The notes beneath the pieces were generated by a model. The model searched no databases. It was not told where the DNA came from and saw nothing but the letters and a program-made list of their open reading frames with translations. The position numbers and the translations under genes are program-made. Positions 1,590 to 42,324 of a stretch of DNA of 64,000 bases are shown here, in pieces. The stretch is from an uncultured Flavobacteriales bacterium (GTDB lineage: Bacteria; Bacteroidota; Bacteroidia; Flavobacteriales_F; PHOS-HE28): the NCBI GenBank assembly GCA_963706125.1, contig CAVPLQ010000008.1, forward strand, positions 682,308 to 746,307. Direction: 5' to 3'. Numbering within the stretch: position 1 is the stretch's first letter; each line of letters starts with the position of its first letter.

Positions 1590-1861
1590 GGTGTTGGATA
1601 TGGGTTCCGCCAAATGTAAGAGGGGGAGTATTCCCGATCCTGAAGCTGGCGGGCACGTTAACTTCGGGCATGCGGAAGAACGGATGGATCTTGGCCATGT
1701 CGATGGTATCTCTTGGGAACATGGCGTTCGGGCGATCCAGCGTGGGTGCTTTGGGCGGTGCGTCCGATGCGGCACAGCGGGTGTTCGATGGGGTCTCCGG
1801 AAGGACTGATAGGGATACTGTAGCGCAGGATGTTCTTGTTGGATGCGAATACTCCAAGGGG

Positions 1862-2122: not shown

Positions 2123-2158
2123 ACCGGGTATCCGAATATGGTGAACTATGTTTTACGT

Positions 2159-2182
2159 TGTATAACTAAAAAAATAGTTATA
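2159..2182. promoter_or_regulatory. perfect 9-bp inverted repeat GTATAACTA-aaaaaa-TAGTTATAC just upstream of blaI; candidate BlaI/MecI-type operator
   Basis: Direct reading: GTATAACTA (2159-2167), A6 spacer, TAGTTATAC (2174-2182), the exact reverse complement. It lies 9 nt before the blaI ATG. Confidence 0.5.
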
Positions 2183-2190
2183 CTTGCACC

Positions 2191-2556: not shown

Positions 2557-2558
2557 CC

Positions 2559-3758
2559 ATGGATCCGCTCATCTTCTTGCTTCGTGCGAACATTGCGTTC
2601 GTCATCCTCTACGGGGCCTACCGGCTCCTGCTTCGCGGCACGCCCTCGTTCGCGGCCAACCGCGCATGGCTGCTACTGACACCGGTGGTGGCGTTCGTAC
2701 TTCCCTTGATCGAACTTCCGTCCACCGTACAACCCCTCGGAGTGATCGAACTTCCGACCGTGGCTGTTGGTGGATCCGGTGAGGTCCTTGCGATCACATC
2801 GTTCCACTGGTCCATGTGGAATGTCGTGTTCGTGCTCTACGGCGCAGGTGTGCTGATCGCTTTGATCATCCTAGCGGTCCGTTACGTGCAGGCATGGCAC
2901 ATGAGCAGAACCGCGGAAGGAGAGGCGTTGTCCTTCTTCGGCCGGATCGTTCTTCCTGTCGGGCTGGAAGGGGATGAGGAACGCTCTCTGGTCGCGCATG
3001 AGCGCGTACATGTCCTGAAAGGCCACAGCTATGACGTGCTCTACTTCGAGCTTCTTGCCGCCATTTCCTGGTGGAATCCCGTCTGGCGATGGGCTTTGCG
3101 GGACTTGCGTACGGTACATGAGCTTCAGGCCGATGCCGTCGCAAGTACCCTTCATCCCGATTACGGCCTCTTGCTGCTTTCCCGTGCGCTCGGTGTTCCG
3201 AAAAGCACCCTCGTCAACAGTTTCCGTTCGTCCAACCTTAGGACACGCATAGCCATGTTGAATAAGAAAGGTTCCCGTTTCTCCGGGCTGAAGTACGCCA
3301 TCGCGATACCCGTACTGAGCGCAGCACTGCTTGCTGTTTCATGCGTTAAGCCCGAAGCTCCTCCTTTGCCGCCGCCGCCATCTGCTCCGGCTGCACCAGC
3401 ATTACCTGCGCAACCTGTAATGGACCTTTCCGAACTGGATGTTCAACCGGAATTCCCCGGTGGGATGGAGGCGGTTTATGCCTTTATGCAGAAGTCCGTC
3501 CACTATCCGGAGCAGGCGCTGAATGAGAACGTTCAGGGGAAGGTCTATGTACAGTTCACGGTGGACCGCGATGGAAAGGTGAAGGACGTACAACTCAAAA
3601 GGGGCCTGCGTGAGGATCTGAATGAGGAGGCTTTGCGCGCAGTGCGTGCCATGCCGGATTGGTCACCGGGCAGCAAGGATGGCCAAGTGGTGGCCACGAG
3701 GTTCGTCATCCCCATAGAGTTCCGCTTGGACAGCACGAATTCCACCGGAAAGGACTGA
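2559..3758 (+). CDS. blaR1: M56-family BlaR1-like signal-transducer peptidase with C-terminal TonB_C domain
   Basis: 399 aa with N-terminal TM helices, zinc-peptidase motif HERVH, proline-rich linker, then a TonB C-terminal domain (GKVYVQFTVDRDGKVKDVQLKRGL..). The blaI-blaR1 pairing is typical of Bacteroidota. Confidence 0.8.
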   Translation: MDPLIFLLRANIAFVILYGAYRLLLRGTPSFAANRAWLLLTPVVAFVLPLIELPSTVQPLGVIELPTVAVGGSGEVLAITSFHWSMWNVVFVLYGAGVLIALIILAVRYVQAWHMSRTAEGEALSFFGRIVLPVGLEGDEERSLVAHERVHVLKGHSYDVLYFELLAAISWWNPVWRWALRDLRTVHELQADAVASTLHPDYGLLLLSRALGVPKSTLVNSFRSSNLRTRIAMLNKKGSRFSGLKYAIAIPVLSAALLAVSCVKPEAPPLPPPPSAPAAPALPAQPVMDLSELDVQPEFPGGMEAVYAFMQKSVHYPEQALNENVQGKVYVQFTVDRDGKVKDVQLKRGLREDLNEEALRAVRAMPDWSPGSKDGQVVATRFVIPIEFRLDSTNSTGKD

Positions 3759-18084: not shown

Positions 18085-18471
18085 TCAGGGGCATGATCCG
18101 GTGCGTTCCACGTTATACTCGGTCAGCTCCACTTTGGCATCGGGGCTGGCGGTTTGTTCCGGGGTGAGTTTCTGCGGAACGAAGTAGATGCCGTTCAATT
18201 TACCGTTGAACGTCCGCCCCGCAGGAATGCAGGTATCCGTCGTGAACTGCTCCACGGTGAAAGCTTGATAGTAGAGGTCCAGCCCCAATTGCAACTGCTG
18301 CGCGGCCGGGCTTGCGTTCACGATCTTCAGCAACAGTTCGCTCGGCTTGCCGGCCCTGTGGTTCCAGCGGTAACTCACGGACACATCGTCCTTTTGCCCG
18401 GCCTGTATGAACTGGGGTGCCGCACAGCCCAGAGCGGGCATCGACAAAAGGAGGAGCAGGGCTTTTCTCAT
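18085..18471 (-). CDS. hypothetical secreted/lipoprotein
   Basis: 128 aa with signal peptide MRKALLLLLSMPALGCA. Overlaps the ltaE stop by 4 nt. Confidence 0.5.
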   Translation of the reverse strand: MRKALLLLLSMPALGCAAPQFIQAGQKDDVSVSYRWNHRAGKPSELLLKIVNASPAAQQLQLGLDLYYQAFTVEQFTTDTCIPAGRTFNGKLNGIYFVPQKLTPEQTASPDAKVELTEYNVERTGSCP

Positions 18472-19494
18472 TTCTCAATAGACCGCATCACGGTGATGGT
18501 TTGGTCGATGGCGTCATCGTCCACGTCCCGGTGTGTCACCATGCGCACCATGAACGTACCGAACTGCGACGCCAGAACGCCGTTCTCTTTCAGTTTGACG
18601 ATCAATTGCGTGGCGGGCATTATGGGTTTCAGGACGGTGACCACGATGTTGGTCTGCACGGGCAATACGTGTTCAACAAAGGAAAGACCGGCCAGGGATG
18701 CTTCCAGCCGCATGGCACGGGCATGGTCTTCCGCAAGCCGTTCCACATGATGGTCCAAGGCATGCAGGCCAGCCGCCGCCAGAATGCCCGCCTGCCGCAT
18801 CCCCCCTCCGATCCGTTTCCGCACGCGACGGGCCTGAAGAATGAAGTCCTTCCTGCCCACGAGAACACTTCCCACCGGCACACCAAGGCCCTTGCTCAGG
18901 CAGATCGATATCGAATCGAACGGCGCGCCCCACGCTGCGGGTGTCCGTCCGTCCACCGCCATCGCGTTGAAGATCCGGGCCCCGTCCAGATGGAGCTTCA
19001 GTTCATGCCGGTCACAAACCGAGCGGATGCGCTTCGCCTCGCCCAGGTCCCAGATGCTGCCCCCTCCGCGGTTGTTGGTGTTCTCGATGTTCACCAAGCG
19101 GGTCCGCGCCAGATAGGCGGCATCGCGGTCGTTCACGGCATCGGCCACGGCTTCCGCAGTGAAACGGCCCCGGTCCGCAGGTACGAACTTCACGCTGCAT
19201 CCACTGGTGGCCATCACGCCGCCACCTTCGTAGCGGTAGATGTGGGCACCTTCCTCGCAGACCACCTCGTCGCCCGGCCGCGTATGGACGTTGATCGGCG
19301 ATCTGGTTGGTCATCGTGCCGCTGGGGCAGAAGAGCCCGGCCTCGTGGCCGAAGAGCAAGGCCATCCGTTCCTCGAGCGCGTTCACCGTGGGGTCCTCGC
19401 CGAAGACGTCATCGCCCACCACCGCTGTTGCCATGGCCTCGCGCATGGCCGGTGTGGGCATGGTCACGGTGTCCGAACGCAGATCTATCGCCAT
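18468..19494 (-). pseudogene. ltaE: low-specificity L-threonine aldolase, disrupted by a +1 frameshift near nt 19296
   Basis: N-terminal ORF 19012..19494 ([29 protein letters not shown]) and C-terminal ORF 18468..19265 (..[19 protein letters not shown]..) are consecutive ltaE segments. Deleting one base in top-strand ttgatCggcg (19291-19300) restores ..[23 protein letters not shown].. Confidence 0.75.
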
Positions 19495-19540
19495 GAAGGG
19501 GCCAAGATAACAAGGTGCGAAGGGCGGATGATGCGACGGT

Positions 19541-19927
19541 TTAATGCAAGCGCCGCTTCAATTCGGCGAGCATCCGCAGTTCCTTGGCGTTCGCCCCATG
19601 GAACGCGTGGGCCACCACGTCAGCGGCCCGAAGGACAAGTTCCTTTTGCTCGGCACAGATCCGGTCCTTATGCTGGGTGAGGTACATGGCGAAGGAGTCG
19701 AACGCTTCTTCAGGAGCTTCCCCGCGGTCGGCCTGAATGTCGAATTCGAACTCGGTGATGTAGGCCTGATCCGTTCCGAAGTGGTCCGTTGAGGCCTCCT
19801 GCGGCACCAATTGCTCGGAGACGACGCGCTTCATCGTGGCGGCCTCCTTGGCATGGATACGCCCGTCCACTGCTGCGATCGCGTAAAGCAAGCGCCCGAG
19901 TTCAGCATAGAATTTCTTCTGGTCCAC
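19541..19927 (-). CDS. TerB-family (tellurite-resistance TerB-like) protein
   Basis: 128 aa, [35 protein letters not shown].. matches the TerB helical-bundle N-terminus. Confidence 0.5.
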
Positions 19928-20101
19928 GCCGAAAGGTAATGCATAAGCAAGGAGCTGTTGGCTGCGACGCGGGCTTTTCTGCGGGTCAACACATGGTCGA
20001 TCCTCCTGCCTGTGGTGTCGGCGAGCTAGAGGTTGCCGCGGAAGGGGGCAAATAAACTTTTCGACCTCCGGGACGTAACAATGCCGATCAATTCAGAACA
20101 G

Positions 20102-21344
20102 ATGAAGCGTAACTACGTGATGATCCTTGCCTGCGCATTGGCCACCGGGACGATGGCTCAATGGCAGCAAATGGGTTTGGAGGGAATGTCATCCACCAGC
20201 GGCGGCGTCCAAGTCGTGGACGGGACGGTCTACTTCCACCCGGGGGAGGACCAGGGCACCATCCACCGGTCCGATGACATGGGGGTGACCTGGCAGATCT
20301 TGCATTTTGCGGATGAAAGCCGTTCATGGAAATACCTAGGCAACAAGCACACCCAGTACATCAACTACGGGACCATGGATACCGGCCCCCACGGGCTCTA
20401 CCGCAAGATGGAGCTTCAGGATTCCTTCACGGACCTGGGCGCGACCATCACGGACTTCGATGTGTTGGACAATGGCCGCGTGGTGGCTTCCACCGGGTCG
20501 GCCGGTGAGGGTTCCATCATCGTGAGCGATCAATATGGTGAGGCGTGGGTATCGGTTTTCCCTTCCACGGGGAACGTTCAGACCCGCTTGGTCGGTCGTG
20601 ATGGGCAGGATCGTCTGCTTGTGCAAGCTTTCGTGGAGACCAGCGAGAATGATCTGGACCTGGGACTTTTCCGGTCCTCGGACTCCGGTGATTCCTGGGA
20701 TCGGATCAACGGGATCAAGAACGACCTCACCGGGGCCAGTGCCAACGTGGACCATTCCATCTACTGCTCCAATGGGCTAAGGATCTTGAAAAGCATGGAC
20801 GATGGCGAGAAATGGGCGCTGTCGTCCGTGGATTTTCCCTATGCGGGCCTCACGGGCTCCCGTGTCTTCAACATGGGCGGTGGGCACGTCTTCTTCATGT
20901 GCCACGAACCCGGCATGACCAACGGGGTGAACTTGTACCAGAGCCTGGACTTCGGTGTTAGCTGGTCCCCCGTGGAAGAGGAAGATCTCCGAGCATTTGA
21001 TCTTCAACATGGCCCGTGATGGATCGGGCCACGTCTATGCCGCCACCGATAACGGTGTATACCGGCTCGACCTTGCGACGGCCGTGGGCATCAGCGACCC
21101 CGGGCACGCGGCAAGCGTGTTCGCTTACCCCGTGCCCACTTCGGATAACCTAGTGGTGAACGCCGGCGGTGCGATGATGACCGAATTGCGCTTGTTCGAT
21201 GCGGCATCGCGCGAAGTGATGTTCAAACCGAACGTGGACAAACCTGCTGAACTGTTGCACGTGGGGCATCTGTCCCCCGGGGTCTACATCCTACGCGCGG
21301 TGACCAACAAGGGCATCGCCACCACCAGTGTGGTCGTGGAGTGA
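20102..21344 (+). pseudogene. BNR/sortilin-like repeat protein with T9SS type-A C-terminal sorting domain; frameshift near nt 20985
   Basis: Signal peptide MKRNYVMILACALATGTMAQ. Repeated S-x-D-x-G-x-T/S-W BNR motifs (SDDMGVTW, SSDSGDSW, SMDDGEKW, SLDFGVSW). ORF 20033..21019 stops right after ..SWSPVEEEDL; the -1-frame ORF 20955..21344 continues (..ISEHLIFNMARDGSGHVYAATDNGVYRLDL..) into a Por_Secre_tail (..LSPGVYILRAVTNKGIATTSVVVE). Confidence 0.65.
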
Positions 21345-26684: not shown

Positions 26685-29600
26685 TCAGCTGGGTTCCGGT
26701 GTGGCTTGCAGGGATCCCATGGGTACGCGCACGGTGATCTTCGTTCCTTGGCCAACGGCACTATGGATGCCCAAGGCGGCCCCGATCTCCGAGGCGCGCT
26801 GGCTCATGTTGCGTAGGCCATGGTGGTCCGCCGACCGCGTGGCCAGTGTGTCGAAGCCGCTGCCGTCATCTTCCAGGTCGATCACCAAGTGTGCCTCCTC
26901 CATCCGGGCGCTCAAGGTACAGCGCCGGGCCGCTGCGTATTTGGCACAGTTGTTCATGGCCTCCTTCATGAGCAGAGTGATCGCACGGCGCGTCTCCATG
27001 GTGACGTGCATGCGCAATGCGGGTGGCGGCGGGGCGGTCACTTTGAAGGCCGTGGGTGTGGCATCGAAGAGGGCCAGCCCGAAGGAGGTGAGCCGTTCCA
27101 AGGTGTCCCCGAGGCTGTCCCGCGTGGGGTCCATGGTCCAGATCAGGTCGCGGATGCCGGCCGAGAGTTCCCGGCTGGCGGTCTCGATCTTCAGGAGATG
27201 CGGGACCAGTTCCGGGTTTCCGGCGGCGCGTTGGCGGACCAGTCCGGTGAAGAGATTGATGCGGGTGATGCGCGCCCCGGCCTCATCGTGGAAATCGGCA
27301 GCGCTCCTCCGGCGGAAGTTTTCGAACTGCTCCGCCTTGGCCTTTTCGGCGCTCGCATGCGCCGCTGCTTCCCGGCGGACCATCCGTAAGCGCATGCTGA
27401 AGACCGCATAGAGCACTCCGGCCAGCAGGCCCGCATAAGCGAGGTAGGCGTACCAGCGCAGCCACGGCGGGGCGAGCACATGGATCGCGAGCGAGGCCCC
27501 TTCGGTATTCCAGACCCCGTCGTTATTGGTGGCCTGCACATGCAGCCGGTATGAGCCCGGCGCCAAGTTGGTGAAGGTGACATCGTTGCGCGGGCCAAGG
27601 TCCACCCACCGTTCATCGAAGCCTTCCAGCCGGTACCGGTAGCGGTTCTTCTCCGGGGCGATGAAGTTCAGCGCCGCGAAGGTGAAGGTCAGCACATGGT
27701 GGTGCCAGGCCAAGTCAAGACGTTCCAGCTGATGCGGAGGGCGGTCGAGCGCGAGGCCGTCGCCGGTCCCTGCGGGCCGGACGGGCAGGGGCTTGTTGTA
27801 CAGGGCGATGCCGGTGAAACGCACGGGAGGCGGGCGCATGTTGGTCGCGAGGTCCGCTTCCCGGAACCAGGACAATCCGTTCGCACCACCGAAGTACAGC
27901 GTGCCATCGCGGCTCCGTATGAAGGCGTTCTGGTTGAACTCGTCTCCCGGCAGGCCGTCGCCTTGATCGAGCATGCACAATACCGTCCCGCTATCGGGGT
28001 CCCATTCCACCAGTCCGTCGTTGGTGCTCAGCCAGAGATGGCCGCCCTCGTCGGGCTGGATGCCATAGATCACCTCGTTAGGTAATCCGTCCGCACGGTT
28101 GTACCGCTTGAACATCCCTTCCTCCGCGCGGCCCTCCAGTACGGTGCGGCGCAGTTTCGTGTTCAATGGTCCGCGCGTGCGACAGAGGCCGTTCACCGTT
28201 CCCGCCCAGAGCCGGCCCTTCGGGTCCTGGTACAGGCAGAGCACGAGGTCCGCGCTGAGGCTGCCCATGTCCTCCGGTTCATGCTTCACCGTCCCGAAGG
28301 TGCCATCGGGGGAACGCAATAACAGGCCACCGCCCGCCGTGCCCGTCCAGAGGAATCCGGCATCATCCACAAGCAGGGTGAAGAGGTAGGGATGCGAAGG
28401 GCCGTCGCTACCACCGGTAGGACCTTGGCAGGAAAGGGCGCCGGCGGCGCTGTCCAACCGGCAGAGCCCCGCACCGCCCGTGGCGAGCCAAACGTTCCTG
28501 GACGTGGTGGTCAGGATGTGGTGAACGATGTCCGCACGACGCGGGTCGGTCAGGCCGACGGGCCTGTGGCGCTTGACCCCGATCTTTCCTTCGCGCTCGA
28601 CCACCTCGTTCAGCCCGCCGCCCAAAGTGCCCACGAGGATCCGTCCCTGATCGTCCATGGCGAGTGACAGTACGTAGTCCGCGCCTAAGGAGCTGGGGTC
28701 GCGTGGATCATACCGCAGGTGCCGGAACGCGTCCTTCGCGCGATCCCAGATCGTCAAGCCGGACGGGGAGCCGATCCAGATCCGGCCTTGCAGATCCTCG
28801 ATCAGCGCGGTCACGCTTGTATGTAACAGGCCATTGGTGTCCCCTGATGAATGCGTCAAGGCATGGACGGTCGGCTCCAGGCGATCGATGCGGTCCAGCC
28901 CGTTGCGGGTGCCCACCCAGATCTCGCCGCCGCGCCCGGCATGGATCGAAAGGACGTGGTCGTCCGCAAGGCTCGATGGGTCGTCGGGCCGGTGCCGATG
29001 GATGTAAGTGGCACCGCTTGACCGGACCATGAGGACCAGGCCGTGCGTGGTGCCGATCAGGATGTGATCCTTCAGAAGCAGGAAACACTGGAAGCCCATC
29101 TTCGGGTCGGCCGTGGAAAGCGAGCCTGCGTCCACCAGTACGGCTTCCTCCGCAGTGCGCGGGTCGATCCGGTAAAGCCGGCGGTTCTCCAGCACATGGA
29201 CAGCCTCCGGGGTGGCGGTTAAGGCGGTCACCTCCTGTTCCGTGCCGGTCCCCGGGCCCTGCTTCAAGACCTCCACCCCGCCGGTGGACATTGTGAACCG
29301 CAGCAGTCCCGCCCGGCCTTGGAGCAGCAGGTGGTCCGCATCACCGGGCGCCATGGCACCGATCAGGTCCCCTTCGGCCATGCCGCCCTCGATATAGCGT
29401 TGGACGCTTCCGGTTTCCATGTCCAACCGGTCGAGGCCCTTGCCGGTGCGCACCCACAGCACACCGGCAGGGTGCTCCAGCAAGCCCAGGACGCGGTCGC
29501 TGCTCAGGCTCCGGGGATTCTCCCTCGGCATGCCGGAAATGGCTGAACGCGTCGGTGCCGGGGTCATAGCGGTCGAGGCCGCCCCCGTAGGTGCCGATCC

Positions 29601-29871
29601 ACAGTGCGCCGTCCTGCGCTTCCAAGGAGGCCCACACATAGTTGTTGGAGAGGCTGTTCGCCGTGCCATCATTCCGGTAGGTGATAAAGCCGTGCCCGTC
29701 ATAGCGGCACAGGCCGTCCTGTGTGCCGGACCAGAGGAAACCGTACCGGTCCTCCAGCATCGTGTTCACGGAATTCTGGGGAAGCCCGTCGGTGTTGTCC
29801 AAGTGATGGAACCGCAGCGGGCCGGGTTGCGCGCATAAGGCTATGGAGACCGCCGCATAGGCGATGAGCAT
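26685..29871 (-). pseudogene. two-component-regulator-propeller (Y_Y_Y) hybrid sensor histidine kinase; frameshift near nt 29525
   Basis: N-terminal ORF 29341..30000 carries a signal/TM segment and the first Reg_prop repeats (..LSNNYVWASLEAQDGALWIGTYGGGLDRYDPGTDAFSHFRH), then runs into nonsense. ORF 26685..29702 resumes with ..ENPRSLSSDRVLGLLE.. Further propeller repeats, a Y_Y_Y domain, a TM helix, an H-box (..FHDEAGARITRINLFTGL..) and HATPase_c follow. The start codon (29871 or 29907) is uncertain. Confidence 0.7.
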
Positions 29872-30027
29872 GGCGGTTCGACCGGGGCTATGTGGTTCAA
29901 TGCGCATGCGGGGCCAGCCTCGAACATACAGAGGATCCGCGGAAGATCCACCCAAATGGGTCATGGACGGGCTATCTGAATGGCCGAACTTCGCGCTCAA
30001 GAATCCACGACCATGTATACAAGCTCC

Positions 30028-30456
30028 ATGAAGTTGTTATTCGGCATACTCTTGCTCTCGGCCTGCGGCACCGGCACCACTGCGGAGGAGACCACAGGAA
30101 CGGAACAGGTGATCCCCGCCGTGGAGGCGGCTGAAGCGTGCGATCCACTGGTGGGCGAGTTCCGCGATCTGATGGCGGACTATGAGGGCGACCTCAAAGC
30201 GATGATCGCCGATGGCAAGGTGGATGAGGAAAGGCAGAAGGAATGGTCCGCGAATGCCAAAGACCTGGGCGAGCGGATCAACGCCAAGGGAGAACGGGAG
30301 CTGGGCCTGAAGTGCTACCAGGAGTTCAATACCATCGGGCAGGTGTACGCGCCGCGTATCGCGGAGCTCGGCATGCAACTGGCCCTTATGCAGATGAAGG
30401 ACAAGGGCATGGACCCGGCCGCCATGGAGCAGGTGAAGAAGGCCATGGGGCAATAG
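30028..30456 (+). CDS. hypothetical lipoprotein
   Basis: MKLLFGILLLSACG lipobox, then a helical Lys/Glu-rich 140-aa body. Confidence 0.5.
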   Translation: MKLLFGILLLSACGTGTTAEETTGTEQVIPAVEAAEACDPLVGEFRDLMADYEGDLKAMIADGKVDEERQKEWSANAKDLGERINAKGERELGLKCYQEFNTIGQVYAPRIAELGMQLALMQMKDKGMDPAAMEQVKKAMGQ

Positions 30457-32104: not shown

Positions 32105-33919
32105 TCAATAGCCGTATTTCCCCTCGGCGATCATTATCTTCGATATCGCCTTCCGCAATTCCGCCGTATTCAAGTTCGTGCTCTTGCAAAAGCGCTTCGC
32201 GCCCATCAGCATGGCACGCTGTTCGTCGCCATCGGAGAAGTTGTTCACGGCTTCTTTCGCGTACTTGTGGATCCGATCGGCCGCATCATGTACAAAGAGC
32301 TGGCACATGGCCAACTGCTCTTTCACGTTATCAGTGCCCTTCATCTCGGCCAACTTCAAGGTCCGCAGTAATGCGCTTTCGGCGAGGTAGGTGTCGATCA
32401 CCATATCGGCGATGTGCATCAAGGTCTCTTGGTGCTTCGCCAGTTCTAGACCGAGTTTCTGCGCAGCGCCACCGGCCACCATCAGCACGGCCTTCTTGAA
32501 ATTCGTCTACCATACGCTTCTCGTCGCCGAGCAGTGAATCGTCAGGCTCCGGCATTTCGGGGAGGCCCATCAGTTCAGCGGCGACGGCTTCTGTGCAGGA
32601 CCCATCAGGTCCAGCTGGCCCTTCATCGCGCGCTTCAGCAGCATGTCCACCGTGAGCATGCGGTTGATCTCGTTCGTTCCTTCGAAGATCCGGTTGATGC
32701 GACTGTCGCGGTAGGCACGCTCTACGGGGCTTTCGGCGCTGTAGCCCATGCCGCCGAAGATCTGCACGCCTTCATCGCACACGTAGTCCAGGCATTCGCT
32801 GCCGGCCACTTTCAGGATCGCCGCTTCGGCAGCATACTGCTCCACACCTTTCAGCAAGGCTTTCGCGTGGTCCGCACCAGCGGCTTCCAAGGCTTCGATC
32901 GCCTGTTCCATATCGTAACTGCAACGGTAGGTCGCGCTTTCCACCACGTAGCAGTAGGTTGCTTGGTCGGCAAGCTTTTGGCGGATCGCACCGAACGAGC
33001 TGATTGGACGGCCGAACTGCTGCCGTTCGTTGGCGTACTGCACCGAATGGTCCACCACGGCCTTCGCGCCACCGAGCGCAGCCCCCGACAATTTGATGCG
33101 ACCGATGTTCAAGATGTTCACCGCGATCTTGAAACCGTTGCCGCGCTCACTCAGCAAATTCTCCACTGGCACCTTGCAATCGTTGAAGAACACCTGCCGC
33201 GTGCTGCTGCCCTTGATCCCCATCTTCTTCTCCTCCGGGTTCAGCGTGATGCCGCCGAAACTCTTCTCCACGATGAACGCGCTCAGGTTCTCATCCGCCT
33301 CGCCGGTCTTCGGGTCCACGATCTTGGCGAACACCGTGAAGATGTCCGCGAAACCACCGTTGGTGATCCACATCTTCTGGCCATTGAGGAGGTAGTGCTT
33401 GCCGTCATCGCTCAGCACCGCCTTCGTTTTCCCGCTGTTGGCATCGCTGCCGGCTCCGGGTTCCGTGAGACAGTACGCAGCCTTCCACTCGCCGGTGGCC
33501 AACTTCGGGATGTACTTCTTCTTCTGCTCCTCGGTGCCGTAATAGAGTATCGGCAGCGTGCCAATGCCTGTATGCGCCGCGATGGCCACGCTGAAACTAT
33601 GACCCGCCCCGGTCACTTCCGTCAGGAGCATCGTGGTCACGAAGTCCTTGCCGAAGCCGCCTAACTCTTCCGGCAAGGAGATGCCCAGCAGCCCGAGTTC
33701 ACCGGCCTTGTCCAGTAGGCTCGGCATCAGGCCCTCCTCCATGCTGTCGATGCGGTCCAAGTGCGGCCAAACCTCCTGCGACAGGAAGTCCTTTGCCGTC
33801 TGCGCAATCATGCGCTGCTCCTCGTTGAATTCTTCAGGAATAAAAATGTCCTTCGGGTCGCTTTCGCGGATCAGGAATTCGCCGCCTTGAAGGGCTTTGG
33901 GTTTGGTCTCTGTTGCCAT
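32105..33919 (-). pseudogene. long-form acyl-CoA dehydrogenase (about 600 aa, with C-terminal helical extension); two frame changes in the linker at about 32497 and 32580
   Basis: ORF 32570..33919 (449 aa) is a complete ACAD core (..[12 protein letters not shown].., ..[31 protein letters not shown]..). It continues in a second frame (..[26 protein letters not shown]..), then a third (FKKAVLMVAGGAAQKLGLELAKHQE.. = ORF 32105..32488), which is the usual C-terminal extension of this ACAD class. An extra T in gaaTTTcaag (about 32497) accounts for the second shift. Confidence 0.65.
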
Positions 33920-33975
33920 TGTTCGGTTCGAATGTTCAGGCTGTTGATGTCTGCTGCCAAGTGTAACGAATTGTG

Positions 33976-34011
33976 GTATGCACTAATTCGCATAAAGGTA
34001 TGCACGCATAC
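33976..34011. promoter_or_regulatory. tandem palindromic operator-like sites upstream of the acyl-CoA dehydrogenase gene
   Basis: GTATGCACtaattcGCATAa (33976-33995) and the near-perfect palindrome GTATGC-ac-GCATAC (33998-34011), 57-92 nt upstream of the ACAD start. Same motif as 40185..40198 upstream of marR. Confidence 0.5.
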
Positions 34012-34092: not shown

Positions 34093-35247
34093 CTAGTTCC
34101 AAGGACCGGTCTTCGTCACATGAAAGAAGCGCTTTCCACCTGTCCTGAGCGATGCCGAAGGATCGAAGCGGAAGAGCCCATTCCAGCCACCGAACCAGAA
34201 CCGTCCTTCCCGGTCCTCCATGATGGTGAGGATCCCGTTCGTGTCGAGGCCATCGTCGGTGTAGAAATTGGTGAAGGCCTTTCCGTCGTAACGATAAACC
34301 CCGAAGTTCTCCGCAGCGAACCAGATGTTCCCCTTCTTGTCCTCGTAGAACGCACCGACCTCCACACCTTGGATCACGCCGTCCTTGGTGAAGTTCTCGA
34401 AGGTCTTGCCATTGTATCGGCTCACTCCACCGAAGCTGCTGCCGATCCACAAGTTGCCCTTGCTGTCCTCGAATAGGCCGGTCACGCTGTTGTCCGCCAG
34501 GCCGTTCTCCGTAGCGTAGTGGGTGAAGGCTGCACTCGCATCGCTTATCCGCGGATCGTATTTGTACAAACCACCGGCATCGCGACCGAACCAGATGTTC
34601 CCCTTGATGTCTTCCAGGACGCACGTGATGCGTGTTCGGGATAGCATGGCGGTGGTGTCTTGTGCCCGCACTGCCGAAATAGGTACGGTGGTGAATGCCT
34701 TGCCATCGAAGCGGCATAGCCCGTCCATCGTGCCGATCCAGATCGTGCCATCGCGCCCCATGGTCATGCTCCAGATCTCATTGTGGAGCAGCCCATCCAT
34801 TGTGGTGAACTGGCTGAAGCCATGGCGAGATGAGCCGCGCTCGGCCGGCCCCCCCTGAGCTCGTCGAAGAGTGGGGCCGTACTTGAAGAGGCCTTCACCA
34901 TCTGTTGCTAACCAAATGTTCCCTTCGTGGTCCTCCACGATCCCGTTGATCCGGCCCGACGTGATGCCGACGCTATCGGCGAGGTACTCCAGTGTATCGT
35001 TCTGGTAGCGGATCGCGCCGTAGTGATTGGTGCCGAACCAGAGCGCACCGCGTTTGTCCTGATGCATGTTGCGCACCCAGTGACAGAGTTGCCCCTCGTA
35101 TGAAAGGCGCACGGGCCACTCGCTCGGGATCGGGACGGTATCGTTCGTGATCACCACCGGTTCCTTGATGCTGCTCTGTCCGTTGCAGGAGTAGAGGAAG
35201 AGCAATGAGCCGAAGGCTTGGCAGGCGATGGTGTGCGTGGTCTTCAT
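34093..35247 (-). CDS. lipoprotein made only of two-component-regulator propeller (Reg_prop) repeats, no kinase domains
   Basis: 384 aa, signal plus lipobox (..LLFLYSCNG). At least 8 repeats of the ..GNIWFGT..GL.RYDG..F..F form. One stretch (..KYGPTLRRAQGGPAERGSSRHG..) coincides with a G7 homopolymer (about 34860-34880) and may hide a compensated frameshift. Confidence 0.6.
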   Translation of the reverse strand: MKTTHTIACQAFGSLLFLYSCNGQSSIKEPVVITNDTVPIPSEWPVRLSYEGQLCHWVRNMHQDKRGALWFGTNHYGAIRYQNDTLEYLADSVGITSGRINGIVEDHEGNIWLATDGEGLFKYGPTLRRAQGGPAERGSSRHGFSQFTTMDGLLHNEIWSMTMGRDGTIWIGTMDGLCRFDGKAFTTVPISAVRAQDTTAMLSRTRITCVLEDIKGNIWFGRDAGGLYKYDPRISDASAAFTHYATENGLADNSVTGLFEDSKGNLWIGSSFGGVSRYNGKTFENFTKDGVIQGVEVGAFYEDKKGNIWFAAENFGVYRYDGKAFTNFYTDDGLDTNGILTIMEDREGRFWFGGWNGLFRFDPSASLRTGGKRFFHVTKTGPWN

Positions 35248-36097
35248 TTCTTCCTGCCCTTTGTGATCGCCTTCTTCCCCGGTGGCAGAAAGTTACTCCC
35301 TGAAACTACAGAACGCCCTGTGCGCTCTTCCAGCTCAAGCCGAGCCTTCTTCGCGATGCCACCACCTTTCCTTGCCGCCACTTTGTTCTTGGGCATCCCC
35401 TTGGCCTGATCACTCTCCGCGATCTGCCGTGTGCTCAGTTCCGCCAGAGCCGTGAAGGTCAGCTCCGCTTCGGTCCTATGGTCGCGCAGGTTCTGGGTCT
35501 TCAGGCCCTTGATCCCTTTATGGTCTTTCACGGTCACACCACTCCACTCCTGATGAATGATGTTCGTGAGGATCGCATACTCTTCACCCTCCTTGTTGTC
35601 ATGTTCCTTCCATTTGTCCGTGAGCTGGTTGCGCGTCTCCTGGCCCATCATGCGCTGCTGGATCCACTTCTCGCTACGGCCGTGCTTCAACCAAAGTTCG
35701 CGGGCGCGGTCCACGCCGAGGCTCGGGTCGGCCAGCTCCTGCATGCGTTCGTAATCCACCTTTGCCAGCCACAGTTTGATAGGTTCCGCCTTGGGGCTTG
35801 GAACGGACTGGACAAGTCGCAGCAAGGTCTCGGCGGTGGCTACATCGGTGAGGCGCAACCTGCCATCCTCGGCGGGCAATTTCAACCGGTTACAATCTGT
35901 AACCAGTTGACTTCCCTCTTTCTCCAGTCTGTGTATCAATACCTTCCAGTATTCCGGGCAAGCTGGTAGTCTGGCTGTTGGGCCAGTGCCTGAATGATGT
36001 CGATCACAGAGAACCACCAAGTCTCCGTGGCTTCGTCGTAGAGACGTCGAATGTGGTGTTGCTCAAAGAGGGCGGAAGAGGGTAGCAGGGCGCTCAT
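35244..36097 (-). pseudogene. dinD: DNA-damage-inducible protein D (DinD)-like / Bro-N domain protein; -1 frameshift near nt 35952
   Basis: ATG at 36095-36097 opens MSALLPSSALFEQHHIRRLYDEATETWWFSVIDIIQALAQQPDYQ.. (Bro-N-like). It is out of frame with ORF 35244..36020 (..YWKVLIHRLEKEGSQLVTDCNRLKLPAEDGRLRLTDVATAETLLRLVQSVPSPKAEPIKLWLAKV..KGMPKNKVAARKGGGIAKKARLELEERTG), which matches DinD over the whole length. Inserting one T in cggaat_actgg restores continuity. Confidence 0.6.
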
Positions 36098-36171: not shown

Positions 36172-37347
36172 TCAATTCAACAACTCAAACACACTCGCCG
36201 CACCCTGCCCGGCGCCCACACACATGGTAACAACGCCATACTTCTGTTTGCGACGTCTCATCTCATTGAAGAGCTGCACGCTCAGCTTCGCACCTGTGCA
36301 ACCCAGCGGGTGTCCCATCGCGATCGCGCCACCGTTCACGTTCACAATGCTCGGGTCCAGCCCAAGCTCACGGATCACCGCCAACGACTGCGACGCGAAG
36401 GCCTCGTTCAGCTCGATCAGCTCGATGTCCTTCAGCTTCAGTCCGGCCATTTCGATCGCCTTTGGCACTGCTGCGATCGGACCTATACCCATGATGCGCG
36501 GCGGCACGCCGGCCACGTGGTAGGAGAGGAGGCGCGCGATCGGCTTCACGTTCAATTGCTTCAGCATGCGCTCGCTCACCACCAGCACGAAGGCCGCGCC
36601 ATCGCTGGTCTGTGAGGAATTGCCGGCGGTCACGGTACCTTTTGGATCGAACACGGGGCGAAGTTTTGCCAGCCCTTCCAAGCTGCTCGTGCGCGGACCT
36701 TCATCCGTGTCCACCACGTATTTCTCCACTTGACGCTTTTCCCTCGCATCCAAGAAGACCCGCTCCACCTCGAAGGGTACGATCTCGTCCTTAAAGCGCC
36801 CGGCGGCGATGGCGGCCAGCGCTCTTTCCTGGCTCTGCAGTGCGAAAGCATCCTGGTCCTCGCGCGTCACCTTGTACTCGCGCGCAACGGCCTCGGCGGT
36901 GAGGCCCATGCCCCAATACCAAGTGGGATGTTCCTGCGCCACCTTGGCATTCGGCACAATGCGCCAGCCGCTGAAGGGGATGGGGCTCATGAACTCCACG
37001 CCCCCCGCGATGATGCAATCCGCCATGCCGCTTTGGATCTTGGCACTGGCGATCGCGATCGTCTCGCTGCCGCTGCTGCAATAGCGGTTCACCGTCATGC
37101 CCGGCACCTTCTCGTTGTTCAGGCCCATCAGGCTGATCATGCGGCCGATGTTCAGGCCCTGCTCCGCCTCGGGCGTGGCGTTGCCCACGATCACATCGTC
37201 CACTTGGTCGGGTGCGAGGTTGGGCACGGAGGCCATCAGGTGTTTGATCACGTGCGCGGCGAGGTCGTCGGGGCGGGTGAAACGGAATTTGCCACGAGGG
37301 GCTTTTCCTACTGCGGATCGGAATCCGGCTATGATGTATGCGTCCAT
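36172..37347 (-). CDS. fadA: acetyl-CoA C-acyltransferase (3-ketoacyl-CoA thiolase)
   Basis: 391 aa from ATG at 37345-37347 (MDAYIIAGFRSAVGKAPRGKFRFTRPDDL..). Thiolase active-site regions are present (..NRYCSSGSETIA.., ..NVNGGAIAMGHPLGCTGAKL.., ..MCVGAGQGAA..). In the ORF track it appears as the C-terminal third of a 1181-aa ORF (see findings). Confidence 0.85.
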   Translation of the reverse strand: MDAYIIAGFRSAVGKAPRGKFRFTRPDDLAAHVIKHLMASVPNLAPDQVDDVIVGNATPEAEQGLNIGRMISLMGLNNEKVPGMTVNRYCSSGSETIAIASAKIQSGMADCIIAGGVEFMSPIPFSGWRIVPNAKVAQEHPTWYWGMGLTAEAVAREYKVTREDQDAFALQSQERALAAIAAGRFKDEIVPFEVERVFLDAREKRQVEKYVVDTDEGPRTSSLEGLAKLRPVFDPKGTVTAGNSSQTSDGAAFVLVVSERMLKQLNVKPIARLLSYHVAGVPPRIMGIGPIAAVPKAIEMAGLKLKDIELIELNEAFASQSLAVIRELGLDPSIVNVNGGAIAMGHPLGCTGAKLSVQLFNEMRRRKQKYGVVTMCVGAGQGAASVFELLN

Positions 37348-37355
37348 GGTATGGT

Positions 37356-39717
37356 TCAATTGCGGAGCACCTTGCCCGTAGTTATGATCGATTGAAGTCT
37401 TTCCAGCGTCTTCCGCTGCATGCACAACTCCAAGAACGTCTTCCGCTCCAGGTCCAGCAGGTATTGCTCGGAAACCTCCGTCGATCTCCGAGAGGTCGCC
37501 GCCGCACATCACGTACCCCAGCTTCTCGCTGATCAGCGCGTCGTGCTCGCTGATGTAGTTGCCGCTCTGCATGCTGTTGGCGCCGACGTAAACAATGCCG
37601 AGGCCTTCCTTGCCGAGCACCTTGATGTCGCGGCGCATGGGCGGCTTGGTGTAGCCGCGTTCCCAGAGGGCGAGCGCGCATTCCTTGGCGTAGGCGAGCT
37701 GGTGTGCGCGGCTAACGATCACTTCGTCGATGCCTTCGCGCAGGTAGCCGAGGTCGAAGGCTTCTTGCCCGCTGGTGCTCACTTTGGCTTGGCCGATGGT
37801 GAGAAAGCGCTCGCGGAGCCGGTTGATGCGGATGTCGCCTTCCTTCAGTTCATCGCTGAGGCGCAGTGCGAATTCCTTGGTGCCGCCGCCGCCGGGTATC
37901 ACGCCGACGCCGAATTCCACGAGGCCCATGTAGGTCTCTGCGTGCGCCACCACTTTGTCCGCGTGCATGCAGAGTTCGGTGCCGCCGCCCAAGCAAAGCT
38001 GGTGCGGTGCGGCCACCACGGGGATGCTGCTGTGGCGCATGCGCATCATGGTGTTCTGGAAGGTGCGGATGGCCATGTCGAGGTCCTCGTACTCCTGTTC
38101 CACGGCCATCATGAAGATCATGCCCACGTTGGCGCCAGCGCTGAAGAGCGCGCCGTCGTTGTAGACCACGAGGCCTTTGTAGCCTACCTCAGCGATGTCG
38201 ATCGCTTTGTTGAGGCCCAGGATCACCTCTGCGCCGAAGGTGTTCATCTTGCTGCTCCAGCTCACGGCAAGGATGCCGTCGCCGAGGTGGCGCACTGTGG
38301 TGTCCTTGTTCTTCCAGACGATGCTGCTTTCCGGCAGGTCGGCAAGCACGATCAGTCCTTCCTGGCCCGGCACCGGCTTGTAGCTCTTGCTCGGGATATC
38401 GTAGAACAGCCGCTTGCCACCTTCACGTTTGTAGAAACTCGTGTTGCCTGCGGCCACGAAGTCCTTCACCCAAGGCGCCACCTTGACACCCTTCGCCTCC
38501 ATCTCCTCCGTTACCTCCTTCACGCCAATGGCCTCCCATGCCTCAAAAGGTCCCAGCTCCCAGCCGAAGCCGGCGCGCATGCCGTCATCGATGCGGTAGA
38601 GCTCGTCGCTGATCTCGGGGATGCGGTTGCTCACGTAAGCGAACATCGCTTGGAAGGAACGGCGGTAGAACTCGCCAGCCTTATCCGTGCCGTGGTAAAC
38701 GAGCTTGGTGCGTTCGCGCAGGTCGTCCACCTTCTTGGCGGCGTCCAGCGTGGCGAACTTGGGCTTCACCTGAGGCTTGTATTCGAGCGTTTTCAGGTCC
38801 AAGGAAAGGATCTCGCCTTTCTTGGTACTGCGATCCTTGAAGTAGAAGCCCTTGCCGGTCTTGCTGCCGAGCATCTGCTTCTCGACCATCTTCTGGAGAT
38901 ATTCCGGAATGGCGAAGAGGTCGTTGCGTTCATCCTTCGGGCAGTTGTCATGCACGCCTTTCGCGACGTTCACGAGCGTGTCCAATCCGACCACATCGGC
39001 GGTGCGGAAGGTGGCGCTCTTGGGGTGGCCGATCACGGGTCCGGTGAGGCGGTCCACCTCTTCCACGGAAAGGCACATGTCGTTGATCAGGTGGAAGATG
39101 TCCATGATGCCGAACACGCCGATGCGGTTGGCCACGAAGGCGGGCGTGTCCTTGGCCAGCACGGTGACCTTGCCCAGCACGCGGCGGCCGTATTCCTCAA
39201 GGAAGGCGATCACCGCCGGGTCGGTCTTCGGGCTGGGGATCAGCTCCAGCAGCGGCAGGTAGCGCGGCGGGTTGAAGAAGTGCGTGCCGAGGAAGTGTTT
39301 TGCGAAATCATCGCTGCGGCCTTCGAGCAAGGCGTGAATGGGTATGCCGCTGGTGTTACTGGTGATCAACGTGCCGGGCGTGCGGTATTTCTCCACGTTG
39401 GCATACACCTGCTGCTTGATGTCGAGGCGTTCCACCACCACTTCGATCACCCAATCGCAGTCCTTGATCTTCGGGAGGTCGTCGTCGAAGTTGCCGGTGG
39501 TGACGCGCTTCGCGAAACGCTTGTCGTAGATGGGAGAGGGGTTGCTCTTGAGAGCGAACGCCAGAGCATCGTCAACGATCTTGTTCCTCGGGCCTTCCTT
39601 CGGAACGATGTCGAGGAGCAGTACCTCGCAGCCCACGTTGGCGAAGTGGCAGGCAATGCGGCTGCCCATTACGCCGGATCCGAGGACGGCTACTTTTTTT
39701 ATCTGTCTGTTTGCCAT
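37356..39717 (-). pseudogene. fadB: fused 3-hydroxyacyl-CoA dehydrogenase / enoyl-CoA hydratase (FadB/FadJ-type), +1 frameshift about 130 nt before its stop (about 37485)
   Basis: MANRQIKKVAVLGSGVMGSRIA.. (Rossmann 3HCDH) through the crotonase domain to ..GYVMCGGDLSE. The native C-terminus (..PTEVSEQYLLDLERKTFLELCMQRKTLERLQSIITTGKVLRN, stop at 37356-37358) is in the +1 frame. In the track frame it reads through 8 nt of intergenic DNA into fadA. Confidence 0.8.
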
Positions 39718-40268: not shown

Positions 40269-42324
40269 TTAGCGCATCAAGCTCAAGTGCCCGTGGAAGC
40301 TCTCGTCGTTGATCTGCACTTCGTAGAAGTAGACCCCTTCGCTCGCGGGTCCACCGTTCTCCTGCTTCCCGTCCCAGCCATTGTTGCCGCCGTTGCTTTC
40401 ATGGACCAGTTTGCCCCAGCGATCAAAGATCCGCAACTGGAAACAAGGGTCAAGCGTTTGCGTCGACTTCAGCTTGAACCGGTCGTTCACATTGTCGTGG
40501 TTTGGCGTGAAGACATTGGGCAGCTCGAAGTGTACGAGTTCACCGTACGGGGCGACCTCGATGGTTTGTTCGGCGTAGCCGGTACAGCCCGTGTTGGTGG
40601 TGGTCTGCAGACCGATGGTGGTGGGTCCGTTGAAGGGCAGCAGGAATTCGGGACCGTTCTGCCCGACGGTCGTGGCCGATCCGTTCACGGTCCAGGTGGA
40701 GCCCACGGTGTTCGGGCTGGTATCGAGGGCCCGGGCGAGGATGCCTAAGCAGGTGGTGTCCGTGGTGACGGTGAATTCCGCCGGTGGGGTGGTGAGGATG
40801 TTGATCGGTTGCATGGTCTCCATCGTGCATCCGTTCAGGGAACGCTCCACGGTGATCTGCCCGATGCCGGGGTCTCCCCAAGCGATGGTGACACAGCTAC
40901 TGTCGGAACCGGAAAGGATCGTGCCCCCGGTCACGGTCCACGCATAGGTGGCATTCTCGATCAGTTCGGTGCAGTATTCCGCGGTGGTCTGGCCGGAACA
41001 ACCGATGCCCAGTCCGGAGATCGTGGGCGGCGCCGAACTAGGCACTACGTTGATGGTGACGGTGGCGCTGAAGGTCCCGGGCGGACATCCTTCATCATAC
41101 ACCAGTACAGAGAAGTTGTACGGATCCGTGCTCCCCTGTGCGCAGACCGTGGGCCAGCAGAATTGCGTGGTGAGCAGGCTGTCCCCGGTGGAAGGCCCGG
41201 TGATCGTCGCGGGCGGGTCGGTCTGGGCATTGAGGAAGATCGCGCCGATGGCACTGAAGTTGATCACATCACCGTCGGAGTCCGTGAAGGTCATGGGGAA
41301 GCACAGGGTGTCCCCGGCCACCACTTCGTAATTAGCGACGAACTGCCCGTCCAAGGGCTGCGGTGCGGCATTGCTTCCGCTGCATGGCACGCTTAAGAGC
41401 TGCAGGTCGCTCCGGATCAGGCCGATCAATTGACCGTTCCGGTATTCCCTCACTTCCACCACCACCACCCAGTTGCCGATCATCGGCGCGACATATTCCG
41501 TGGCGCCGGTCACCGGGTCGATACTGGCGTAACCAGAGGGTCCGAAAGGCATCCCCGTGGTGATCCCCAGGCCGTATTGCACCGGCTGCAGGGGCCAGTC
41601 CAAAAGGGTGGGCGGATTCGATCACGCCACCGATGTCGTCCTGAGAGCCATAGGGCGTATCAAAACTGAACACGAGTGAATCTCCGTCGCTATCGATGGC
41701 CGCATTGCTGAACGCTGTGGTGTCGGAGATGCAGATGTACGGCACCGGTGTCCCGGTGAACACGGGCGAAGAATTAGCGATGGAGGTGGGTGGCATGTAG
41801 GAATAGAACCCCATGCCCGCTTCGCCGGGGTCTTGCAGATTGACGATCGCACCATTACGGGCGAAGAGCTGCAGATAGAGGTGAAAGCCGGTATTGCTGG
41901 CCGAGAGCACCACCTCGCCCTCCAATCGGCTTTCCTCCACGCACTGGCCATCGCCCAGGTTGCAGCCGGCGGGTATGTTGGGCGTGATCACGCCATAGGA
42001 AGTCAGATAGACCATGGCGGTCTGGATCTGGTTCTTGTCGGCGCCGGGCGCGGTGGGGTCGTCGGCATAGACCCCGATGGGCACGCCAGTCGATGCGTTG
42101 CCGAGCAGGTCGATGATCGAAGGAAAGCTTGAACCGGAGCCGCAGTTGATAAAGAGCCTTACGATCACTTTATACCTGTATTCCCCGGTCCCCGGAGCGG
42201 TCTCACCGAGATATTGATAGCCCAGATCACCACCGACGATATGGGTGGCGCGTGCGCTGAATGATGTGGCGAAGCAGGCCAATAAGAACAAGATCCGCAC
42301 AGGCCGAATAATGAATTGTATCAT
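40269..42324 (-). pseudogene. large secreted protein with T9SS type-B (gliding-motility-associated) C-terminal domain; frameshift near nt 41610
   Basis: ATG at 42322-42324 gives signal peptide MIQFIIRPVRILFLLACFATSFSA and ..THIVGGDLGYQYLG.. Frame breaks at ..QDDIGGVIESA|PTLLDWPLQPVQYG (ccc/tttt run at about 41605-41620). Continuation is ORF 40269..41603, with Cys-rich Ig-like repeats and the type-B CTD (..LPNVFTPNHDNVNDRFKL..IFDRWGKLV..WDGK..GVYFYEVQIND..). Confidence 0.65.

Follow-up and report, generated by a model that had tools for sequence, protein, structure and literature searches.

Does the minus-strand open reading frame (ORF) at 36172..39717 encode a trifunctional β-oxidation enzyme, or two ordinary genes that a sequence error has joined? 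The ORF has 1181 aa and consists of a 3-hydroxyacyl-CoA dehydrogenase/enoyl-CoA hydratase half and a thiolase half, bridged by 45 residues that are free of homology. It lies in a 64-kb stretch of DNA that was analysed whole and is called the window below. The original prediction had ascribed the fusion to a single +1 indel and left two branches, an assembly artefact or a recent frameshift. We favor the artefact: with a probability of about 85%, judged from sequence comparison, the 1181-aa ORF is not a real protein and is due to an indel introduced by mistake into the consensus of a metagenome-assembled genome (MAG) that is prone to errors and was probably built from long reads. The evidence is that the fused product is known from one contig, that the relatives are in frame, that the shifted tail is constrained, that at least seven further breaks occur in the window, and that one of the broken genes, encoding a CHU_C protein, is intact in an independent assembly. 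A genuine, very recent insertion is unlikely, and a functional fusion or a programmed ribosomal shift is far less likely still.

The frame switch at 37482

Three-frame translation gave ..GGDLSEIDGGFRAIPAGPGAEDV..QLNHT-MDAYII in the frame of the ORF and ..STEVSEQYLLDLERKTFLELCMQRKTLERLQSIITTGKVLRN* in the +1 frame, which ends in a TGA at 37358-37356, with the thiolase ATG at 37347-37345. We aligned the DNA with that of the closest relative (L001), in which the flanks are identical, and obtained GAGATCGACGGAGG in the window vs. GAGATC-ACGGAGG in L001. On the coding strand the extra base is a G (GAGATC[G]ACGGAGG), which corresponds to a C at 37482 on the plus strand of the window. The sequence around 37482 is GATCGACGG with the extra G and GATCACGG without it (also given as GAGATCACGGAGG); the G stands directly 3′ of GATC, and there is no homopolymer at this site. 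Tblastn switched frame at the same place: frame -2 accounts for aa 1-745/746 (39717..37483) and frame -3 for aa 746/747 to the end (37481..37359), the HSPs breaking at 37483/37481. As deposited, the conserved C-terminal tail (..TEVSEQYLLDLER..GKxLRN*) is out of frame. Once the base at 37482 is deleted, the frame stays open for 786 aa and meets its only stop at 37356-37358; the thiolase ATG (37345-37347) follows after 8 nt.

The single indel, its placement within 37470-37500, and the 8-nt distance between the native stop and the thiolase start had all been proposed earlier, and each was borne out by the translation, the alignment, or direct reading of the sequence. Some details need correction. 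Homology had been said to be lost after GGDLSE; the divergence does lie near this motif, but homology runs through GGDLSEI. Because the Ile after GGDLSE is native, there are 45 non-homologous residues and not 46. The native C-terminal sequence, given as PTEVSEQ, is ITEVSEQ.

The +1-frame tail differs from that of L001 at 21 nt over 123 nt, yet 41/41 residues are identical; with L002, there are 26 nt differences and 40/41 residues are identical. By this pattern, purifying selection still acts on the tail as read in the +1 frame. Placing the same G in L002 in silico creates a stop codon within the corresponding bridge stretch, so the stop-free run of the bridge in the window is accidental. The 45-residue bridge (peptides DGGFRAIPAGPGAEDVLGVVHAAEDAGK) is a translation artefact and not a linker.

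Gene order and domain architecture

The coordinates of the cluster and of the other frame breaks are given in Table 1. Pfam domains on the 1181-aa ORF are 3HCDH_N (aa 8-191), 3HCDH (194-292), and ECH_1 (490-616), followed in the thiolase half by Thiolase_N (aa 794-1049) and Thiolase_C (aa 1058-1178); no Pfam domain was found between ~aa 745 and 793.

Table 1 Features of the marR-fadN-fadA cluster and sites of other frame breaks in the window
Feature	Position	Strand	Evidence or remark
MarR-family regulator gene, 144 aa	39717..40151	-	First gene of the marR-fadN-fadA cluster
fadN-type gene, codons 1-745: dehydrogenase (N-terminal) and hydratase/crotonase (C-terminal)	37483..39717	-	Pfam 3HCDH_N, 3HCDH, ECH_1/ECH_2
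Single extra base (G coding, C on plus strand)	37482	-	DNA alignment, tblastn, repair
Native last 41 codons and TGA stop of fadN-type gene, +1 frame, TEVSEQYLLDLERKTFLELCMQRKTLERLQSIITTGKVLRN*	37356..37481	-	
45 out-of-frame codons leading into thiolase, DGGFRAIPAGPGAEDVLGVVHAAEDAGKTSIDHNYGQGAPQLNHT	37348..37482	-	No Pfam match, no homologue coverage
Spacer of 8 nt from native fadN stop to fadA start, ACCATACC	37348..37355	-	Read off the sequence
fadA-type thiolase gene (acetyl-CoA C-acyltransferase), 391 aa, complete, own ATG	36172..37347	-	
Other frame breaks (approximate sites)	19,296; 20,985; 29,500; 32,510-32,590; 35,955; 41,617		Broken genes: threonine aldolase, FadE (two breaks), propeller histidine kinase, T9SS-tail protein, Bro-N gene, CHU_C gene

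Codons 1-745 of the fadN-type gene are 93-94% identical to unfused proteins of 786-787 aa (P0001 and P0002), and the repaired product has the same layout over 786 aa, i.e., 3HCDH_N and 3HCDH followed by a crotonase fold. It matches the NCBIfam model NF052272 end to end (profile positions 2-752 of 752, E = 1.4e-173), and its C-terminus in the +1 frame agrees with that of L001 at all 41 residues, as the original prediction would have it. The score (579 bits) is under the cut-off of 999 of this “exception” model, so the repaired protein is a relative of the same architecture and not a member of the named family. Of the earlier label FadB, the dehydrogenase/hydratase assignment holds and the E. 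coli FadB domain order does not: from the order of its domains, the predicted enzyme is of the FadN or Staphylococcus-FadB kind (dehydrogenase, then hydratase). The fadA-type thiolase scores 433.9 bits against TIGR01930 (cut-off 240.55) and is 92-93% identical, over aa 1-391, to the separate 391-aa thiolases of L001 and L002. Upstream, the marR stop and the fadN-type start overlap by 1 nt; the MarR identity comes from Pfam MarR on the syntenic genes of relatives and from tblastn identity of 90-92% to the MarR of L001 and L002.

The Bacillus-type fadN-fadA-fadE genes are yusL-yusK-yusJ in B. subtilis. With these and with S. aureus FadB (NF052272), the repaired gene shares dehydrogenase domains first, the crotonase domain second, and a separate thiolase next to it. 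The likeness extends to FadE: 3.4 kb downstream lies an acyl-CoA dehydrogenase that, once its frame is repaired, aligns unbroken with NF058590, a model for FadE of the Bacillus type (793.8 bits, cut-off 600). The window differs in that its host belongs to Bacteroidota, its regulator is of the MarR type, and the gene as deposited is frameshifted. E. coli FadBA and FadJI and the mitochondrial trifunctional protein (alpha, beta) carry out the same hydratase, NAD-dependent dehydrogenase, and thiolase steps, and homology to their dehydrogenase part can be recognised (1wdk, 6dv2, 4b3h). However, their order is hydratase-dehydrogenase and that of the window dehydrogenase-hydratase; the sequence search of solved structures returned none with the FadN domain order. 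In these systems thiolase is a separate chain, and likewise in the window once the base is removed.

Other frame breaks in the window and the origin of the extra base

Elsewhere in the 64-kb window, conserved genes are thrown out of frame by one base at no fewer than seven other sites. The CHU_C gene is split at ~41616-41618 and the Bro-N gene at ~35951-35963; the threonine aldolase breaks precisely at the step from Pfam profile position 63 to 64, the FadE-type dehydrogenase can be read through only with two changes of frame ~90 nt apart, and there are two additional probable splits at ~29500 and ~20985. Nonsense-split genes were looked for in the window and none was seen. Frame-breaking indels recur about every 8 kb, and about 13% of genes are broken. 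A codon-usage HMM scan of the window missed the fadN shift; the fadN tail is too short to be flagged, so this method under-counts breaks near gene ends.

We considered an insertion signature (G into C_A, or directly at GATC, as in a methylation-linked basecalling error), which was rejected as a general rule because a relative whose CHU_C gene is 94% identical (L008) keeps TCGATC and so places the extra CHU_C base as an A or T, 1-3 bases away. As a separate observation, the three best-localised insertions (fadN, CHU_C, and threonine aldolase) are all ≤3 nt from a GATC, a weak pattern given that GATC occurs every 112 nt here.

An independent Logan assembly (ERR12037370) contains a contig with three proteins identical to those of the window (235, 249, and 144 aa, the last being the exact MarR product) and the same distances between them. 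On this contig the CHU_C gene is unbroken: it encodes 684 aa in 2055 nt, exactly 1 nt less than the 2056 nt of the window. The contig stops 198 nt into fadN and so bears on the CHU_C break, not directly on 37482. The strain is not identical to that of the window, as 0/6 repaired CHU_C variants matched exactly. Exact look-up in the protein collection of the repaired FadN, the stand-alone thiolase, the six CHU_C repairs, and the repaired threonine aldolase found none of them; therefore these look-ups show no in-frame copy from the same strain. The closest FadN fragments (in the 90% clusters of P0001, P0002, P0122, and P0123) are 95-97% identical and not of the same strain, and neither the searches nor the 90% clusters yielded a fadN 3′ end from that strain.

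A consensus error in metagenome assembly, and not a mutation, is most likely the cause of the extra base. Homopolymers are the commonest context of long-read indels, and the insertion at 37482, lying outside any, differs from this class of error in that respect. Shared with the class are the many one-base indels, the lack of nonsense changes, the 766-kb contig, and the one lesion missing from an independent assembly; the size of the contig and the indel density together point to a probable long-read origin. In long-read (meta)genome assemblies, the errors that characteristically remain are small indels, whose frameshifts break genes apart or join them (10.1101/2021.08.23.457338; PMC9262707; PMC12007338). 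The organism would then carry an ordinary marR-fadN-fadA cluster that encodes a 786-aa bifunctional enzyme and a separate 391-aa thiolase, and the spurious base would have entered the consensus 41 codons upstream of the fadN stop. By chance, the shifted frame is free of stops for 45 codons and is the same frame as that of fadA, which is why an ORF finder reads through into fadA. An out-of-frame stretch of 45 codons that is free of stops is common at 60% G+C.

The principal alternative is a genuine and very recent one-base insertion, by which fadN would have lost its last 41 residues and would read into fadA, probably producing a crippled chain; the gene would be a young pseudogene, possibly within a wider decay of the genome or of its β-oxidation genes. 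We regard this as improbable, although several observations speak for it: the base stands in the deposited assembly and the fused product is recorded from its source contig, two β-oxidation genes are broken (fadN and the fadE-type dehydrogenase), the site is not in a homopolymer, and the strain of the independent assembly is near but not identical. Against it, nothing past the shift points to relaxed selection (0/41 amino acid changes vs. 21 nucleotide changes), and every one of the at least eight lesions in 64 kb is a one-base indel rather than a nonsense change, with unrelated genes affected. The two compensating fadE shifts 90 nt apart resemble local consensus noise, and the CHU_C lesion is missing from a population with identical flanking proteins. 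Moreover, coding is otherwise dense and intact, and it would be extraordinary for ~13% of the genes to be broken in such a genome of a free-living member of Flavobacteriales.

Fused chains among relatives and in other organisms

The best 120 homologues of the 1181-aa query are all unfused, 771-806 aa in length, and end at 63% of the query; among cluster members, those that reach the C-terminus all align to residue 786 of the repaired protein. The conserved C-terminal tail is in frame in every relative compared. A 47/48-nt pattern with an optional extra base was found in five JGI metagenome contigs and one GTDB genome, each time as the 47-nt form that lacks the base. For the fused product (P0451), the sole recorded source is one 765,977-bp contig. 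In the junction search (aa 600-860 of the fused ORF), the 45-residue bridge occurred in no other protein, and the sole match covering both halves was P0121, whose junction differs from that of the window ORF. Orthologues fused with this linker, which had been named, together with reads confirming the extra base, as grounds for abandoning the artefact, thus appeared neither among the best 120 matches nor in the junction search, and the fusion is seen on one contig rather than on several independent ones. In close relatives 0.7-3.3 kb of inserted genes separate fadN from fadA, so the fused state is not ancestral.

These comparisons bear on the remaining alternative, a functional natural fusion or a programmed +1 ribosomal shift that yields normal FadN. 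C. merolae CMR380C (BAM82571.1) is a polypeptide of ~1145 aa with hydratase, dehydrogenase, and thiolase domains (PMC4928187), and the P0285 cluster includes this protein. The expectation that a trifunctional chain would be unusual is to that extent weakened, since a single chain of this kind has a precedent in Cyanidioschyzon merolae (PMC4928187). In P0121, a soil read-level fragment (SRR5690606), a FadN-type C-terminus continues in the same frame into a thiolase. The likeness of the window ORF to the algal type, one chain with the domains for all three activities, is superficial. The algal proteins are eukaryotic, have the order hydratase-dehydrogenase-thiolase, and have 1145-aa cluster members on many contigs; the window ORF has the order 3HCDH - ECH - thiolase, a nonsense bridge, and a single contig, and the dehydrogenase parts are ~27% identical. 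The distance between fadN and fadA in close relatives, and a bridge that is the conserved fadN tail translated out of frame, likewise argue against a functional fusion. For a programmed shift, GAG ATC GAC offers no slippery or stop-adjacent motif, and the relatives, none of them fused or shifted in this clade, have a single frame without the extra base in place of a conserved shift site and two-frame layout. We consider a functional fusion or programmed shift highly improbable. Equally slight is the chance that the base is real and fixed and that a ~130-kDa chain keeps at least thiolase and dehydrogenase activity, a bacterial trifunctional polypeptide at its birth.

The apparent fusion ORF is almost certainly no new enzyme, and the true proteins would work as a normal β-oxidation hydratase/dehydrogenase and thiolase pair. 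With a frame-breaking indel every 8 kb or so, odd ORF lengths, fusions, and pseudogenes in this assembly are suspect. In a public protein collection the artefactual fused ORF links FadN proteins of 787-793 aa and 391-aa thiolases in one 90%-identity cluster, and chaining of two unrelated families by an entry such as P0451 illustrates how indel errors find their way into clusters and annotations. The biological importance of the locus is small, as it is a marR-fadN-fadA β-oxidation cluster of the ordinary kind; if the base is real, it would offer a snapshot of gene fusion by frameshift, in bacteria, of a single-chain trio already known in red algae.

The inserted base and the two reading frames

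The large ORF of the original prediction is present, with 1181 aa and the expected Pfam 3HCDH, ECH and Thiolase domains (table below), and the Pfam search returned no domain from about aa 745 to 793. Three-frame translation of 37330-37620 showed that the frame of the fused ORF reads ..YVMCGGDLSEIDGGFRAIPAGPGAEDV...APQLNHT and then MDAYIIAGF, and that the +1 frame reads ..STEVSEQYLLDLERKTFLELCMQRKTLERLQSIITTGKVLRN, ending at TGA 37358-37356; the thiolase ATG (37347-37345) lies 8 nt beyond this native fadN stop. Both the FadB-type terminus and the fadA start had been placed correctly. The point of divergence had been described accurately except in two details: the native residue following GGDLSE is Ile, which leaves 45 out-of-frame residues, and ITEVSEQ is the correct start of the native tail.

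The nearest homologues read ..GGDLSEITEVSEQYLLDLERKTFLELCMQRKTLERLQSIITTGKVLRN, and DNA alignment of the window (GAGATCGACGGAGG) with the locus L001 from a relative (GCA_040391235.1; GAGATC-ACGGAGG) shows identical flanks, the lesion being a single additional G (coding strand) at position 37482 of the window. When proteins of relatives were aligned by tblastn, aa 1-745/746 fell at 39717..37483 and the final 41 residues in the next frame, at 37481..37359, and once base 37482 was deleted the frame stayed open for 786 aa up to one terminal stop. The alignment, the frame switch and the repair all bear out a single +1 indel as the cause of the fusion, and the C-terminus of the +1 frame aligns with its homologues as anticipated. 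The repaired protein matches NCBIfam model NF052272 (Staphylococcus FadB, in which the dehydrogenase precedes the crotonase) over its whole length, from profile position 2 to 752 of 752, with a score below the model's own cut-off, and the thiolase is complete alone (TIGR01930: 433.9 bits, cut-off 240.55).

Within the 123 nt after the inserted base there are 21 nucleotide differences from L001, 14 of them at third codon positions of the +1 frame, and the 41 encoded residues are identical; relative to the related locus L002, 26 nucleotide differences in the fadN tail accompany one amino-acid difference. Such a pattern indicates purifying selection on the +1 frame throughout the divergence of these lineages, and, judged from these comparisons, the shift at 37482, if real at all, would have to be extremely recent. 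It is by accident that the fused frame stays free of stops, since the same insertion placed in L002 meets a stop codon.

Features of the fused ORF, frame breaks in the window, and spacer inserts in related loci
Feature	Position	Strand	Break or content	Basis
Fused ORF, 1181 aa	39717 to 36172	minus		
3HCDH_N	aa 8-191 of 1181-aa ORF			Pfam
3HCDH	aa 194-292 of 1181-aa ORF			Pfam
ECH_1/ECH_2	aa 490-616 of 1181-aa ORF			Pfam
Thiolase_N	aa 794-1049 of 1181-aa ORF			Pfam
Thiolase_C	aa 1058-1178 of 1181-aa ORF			Pfam
CHU_C/PKD (T9SS) gene	40269-42324	minus	one extra base, about 41616-41618	tblastn
Bro-N gene downstream of fadA	35244-36097	minus	one-base deletion vs L002, about 35951-35963	
Threonine aldolase (Beta_elim_lyase)	18468-19494	minus	one extra base between two GATC sites, about 19296-19299	
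FadE-type acyl-CoA dehydrogenase	32108..33982	minus	breaks 32506-32590	core ORF + C-terminal-domain ORF
Propeller (Reg_prop/Y_Y_Y) two-component histidine kinase	26685-30036	minus	probable break, about 29500	
Sortilin-like protein with Por_Secre_tail (T9SS sorting tail)	20030-21344	plus	probable break, about 20985	
fadN-fadA spacer insert, L001	8361-11667		SLFN_AlbA_2/HATPase_c_4 protein + small ORFs	
fadN-fadA spacer insert, L002/L003	8364-9070		23S_rRNA_IVP protein	
fadN-fadA spacer insert, L008	about 502-3699			

Other frame breaks in the window

At least eight one-base frame breaks occur in the 64 kb, affecting about 7 of roughly 55 genes, with no apparent nonsense change splitting a gene in the window; the count is a lower bound, because the codon HMM failed to flag the fadN shift itself. 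The CHU_C protein has 684 aa in relatives, and its aa 6-234 and 235-684 lie in different frames of the window (42309..41623 and 41621..40272), the extra base being one A or T by comparison with the 94% identical locus L008. Different frames likewise encode aa 1-49 and 46-278 of the Bro-N gene, and Beta_elim_lyase profile positions 1-63 (ORF 19015..19557) and 64-283 (ORF 18471..19310; Pfam). The FadE-type gene runs through frames 0, 2 and 0, pointing to a pair of one-base indels, about 90 nt from each other, that compensate, and its 604-aa reconstruction matches the Bacillus-type FadE model NF058590 in one stretch (aa 11-602, 793.8 bits, cut-off 600).

A 7.8-kb contig of the Logan assembly of run ERR12037370 encodes the window's 235-aa, 249-aa and 144-aa (MarR) products in identical form, with the same spacing to the nucleotide between the 249-aa gene's end and the start of CHU_C (1030 nt) and between the CHU_C stop and marR (117 nt). 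Its CHU_C gene is intact (684 aa; 2055 nt vs 2056 nt in the window), so a population whose flanking proteins are identical lacks at least one of the frame breaks seen in the window. The contig reaches 198 nt into fadN, short of 37482. GATC is over-represented in the window (571 sites vs 340 ± 14 in dinucleotide shuffles), and each of the three best-localised insertions lies no more than 3 nt from a GATC, which hints that consensus error may be linked to this motif.

Search for the fusion and for single-chain enzymes

No fused protein appeared among the best 120 matches to the 1181-aa query (5.8 billion cluster representatives searched); these were unfused, 771-806 aa long, and each covered 63% of the query, which is precisely the stretch that precedes the shift. 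Querying with the junction itself found the 45-residue bridge in no other protein. The exact 1181-aa product (P0451) is recorded from one contig only, of 765,977 bp, evidently the window's own source. A site pattern of 24 nt before and 23 nt after, with the extra base optional, had six matches: five contigs from JGI metagenomes and, from GTDB, the genome JBEBYG010000020.1, which is labelled Cryomorpha ignava MAG. Each of them shows the 47-nt version, lacking the inserted base. The repaired FadN, the lone thiolase, six CHU_C repairs and the repaired threonine aldolase had no exact match in the protein collection.

In the 90%-identity cluster of collection protein P0002 (129 members), P0451 joins 787-793-aa FadN proteins and 391-aa thiolases; an artefactual sequence has chained two unrelated families together. 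P0121 (SRC, SRR5690606_23074267), a 377-aa fragment from soil with about 60% identity to the window, passes in frame from the C-terminus of a FadN-type protein into thiolase (..KTLKKLEN, then MEAYIVAGF..) without FadN's usual final dozen or so residues; this single read-level sequence may reflect a true deletion fusion or an error in the read.

A trifunctional polypeptide, which had been expected to be unusual, has precedents. Among 1.84 billion representatives, a profile-free scan turned up single-chain proteins of 1133-1145 aa with ECH, 3HCDH and thiolase in that order, and the P0285 cluster includes 1145-aa members on many contigs as well as BAM82571.1 of Cyanidioschyzon merolae, whose annotation calls it a fusion protein. 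Proteins of this order, about 1133-1159 aa (P0271, P0282, P0285 cluster, P0276/P0450), come from red algae (Cyanidioschyzon, Timspurckia; see Mori et al.) and metagenomes, two examples being single-member Logan clusters. The window fusion differs in its domain order and nonsense bridge. In FadBA, FadJI and the mitochondrial trifunctional protein, the thiolase is a separate subunit; in a sequence search of solved structures, alpha subunits of this type aligned with the repaired protein's dehydrogenase part.

Interpretation of the fadN-fadA locus

Position 37482 is most simply read as an error of the consensus in a metagenome assembly that is error-prone and probably long-read, and the fused ORF as a feature is not real. 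Long-read (meta)genome assemblies are known to retain small indels by which genes are fragmented or fused (10.1101/2021.08.23.457338; PMC9262707; PMC12007338), and the 766-kb source contig fits such an assembly. Between the two alternatives originally offered, artefact or recent frameshift, the in-frame relatives, the conserved tail and the other breaks strongly favour the artefact; a genuine, very recent mutation at 37482 is improbable. A functional fusion or programmed frameshift is contradicted by the relatives, all in frame, the closest of which carry fadN and fadA 0.7-3.3 kb apart.

Those relatives have inserted genes in the spacer, which is only 8 nt in the window, and within the clade this spacer seems to be a preferred site of insertion. 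Caution is advised with this assembly. Even if real, the window fusion would amount to a variation on a known theme, given the existing single-chain hydratase-dehydrogenase-thiolase proteins. The true locus is an ordinary marR-fadN-fadA cluster, and with the fadE-type dehydrogenase 3.4 kb downstream it resembles the fadN-fadA-fadE arrangement of Bacillus.
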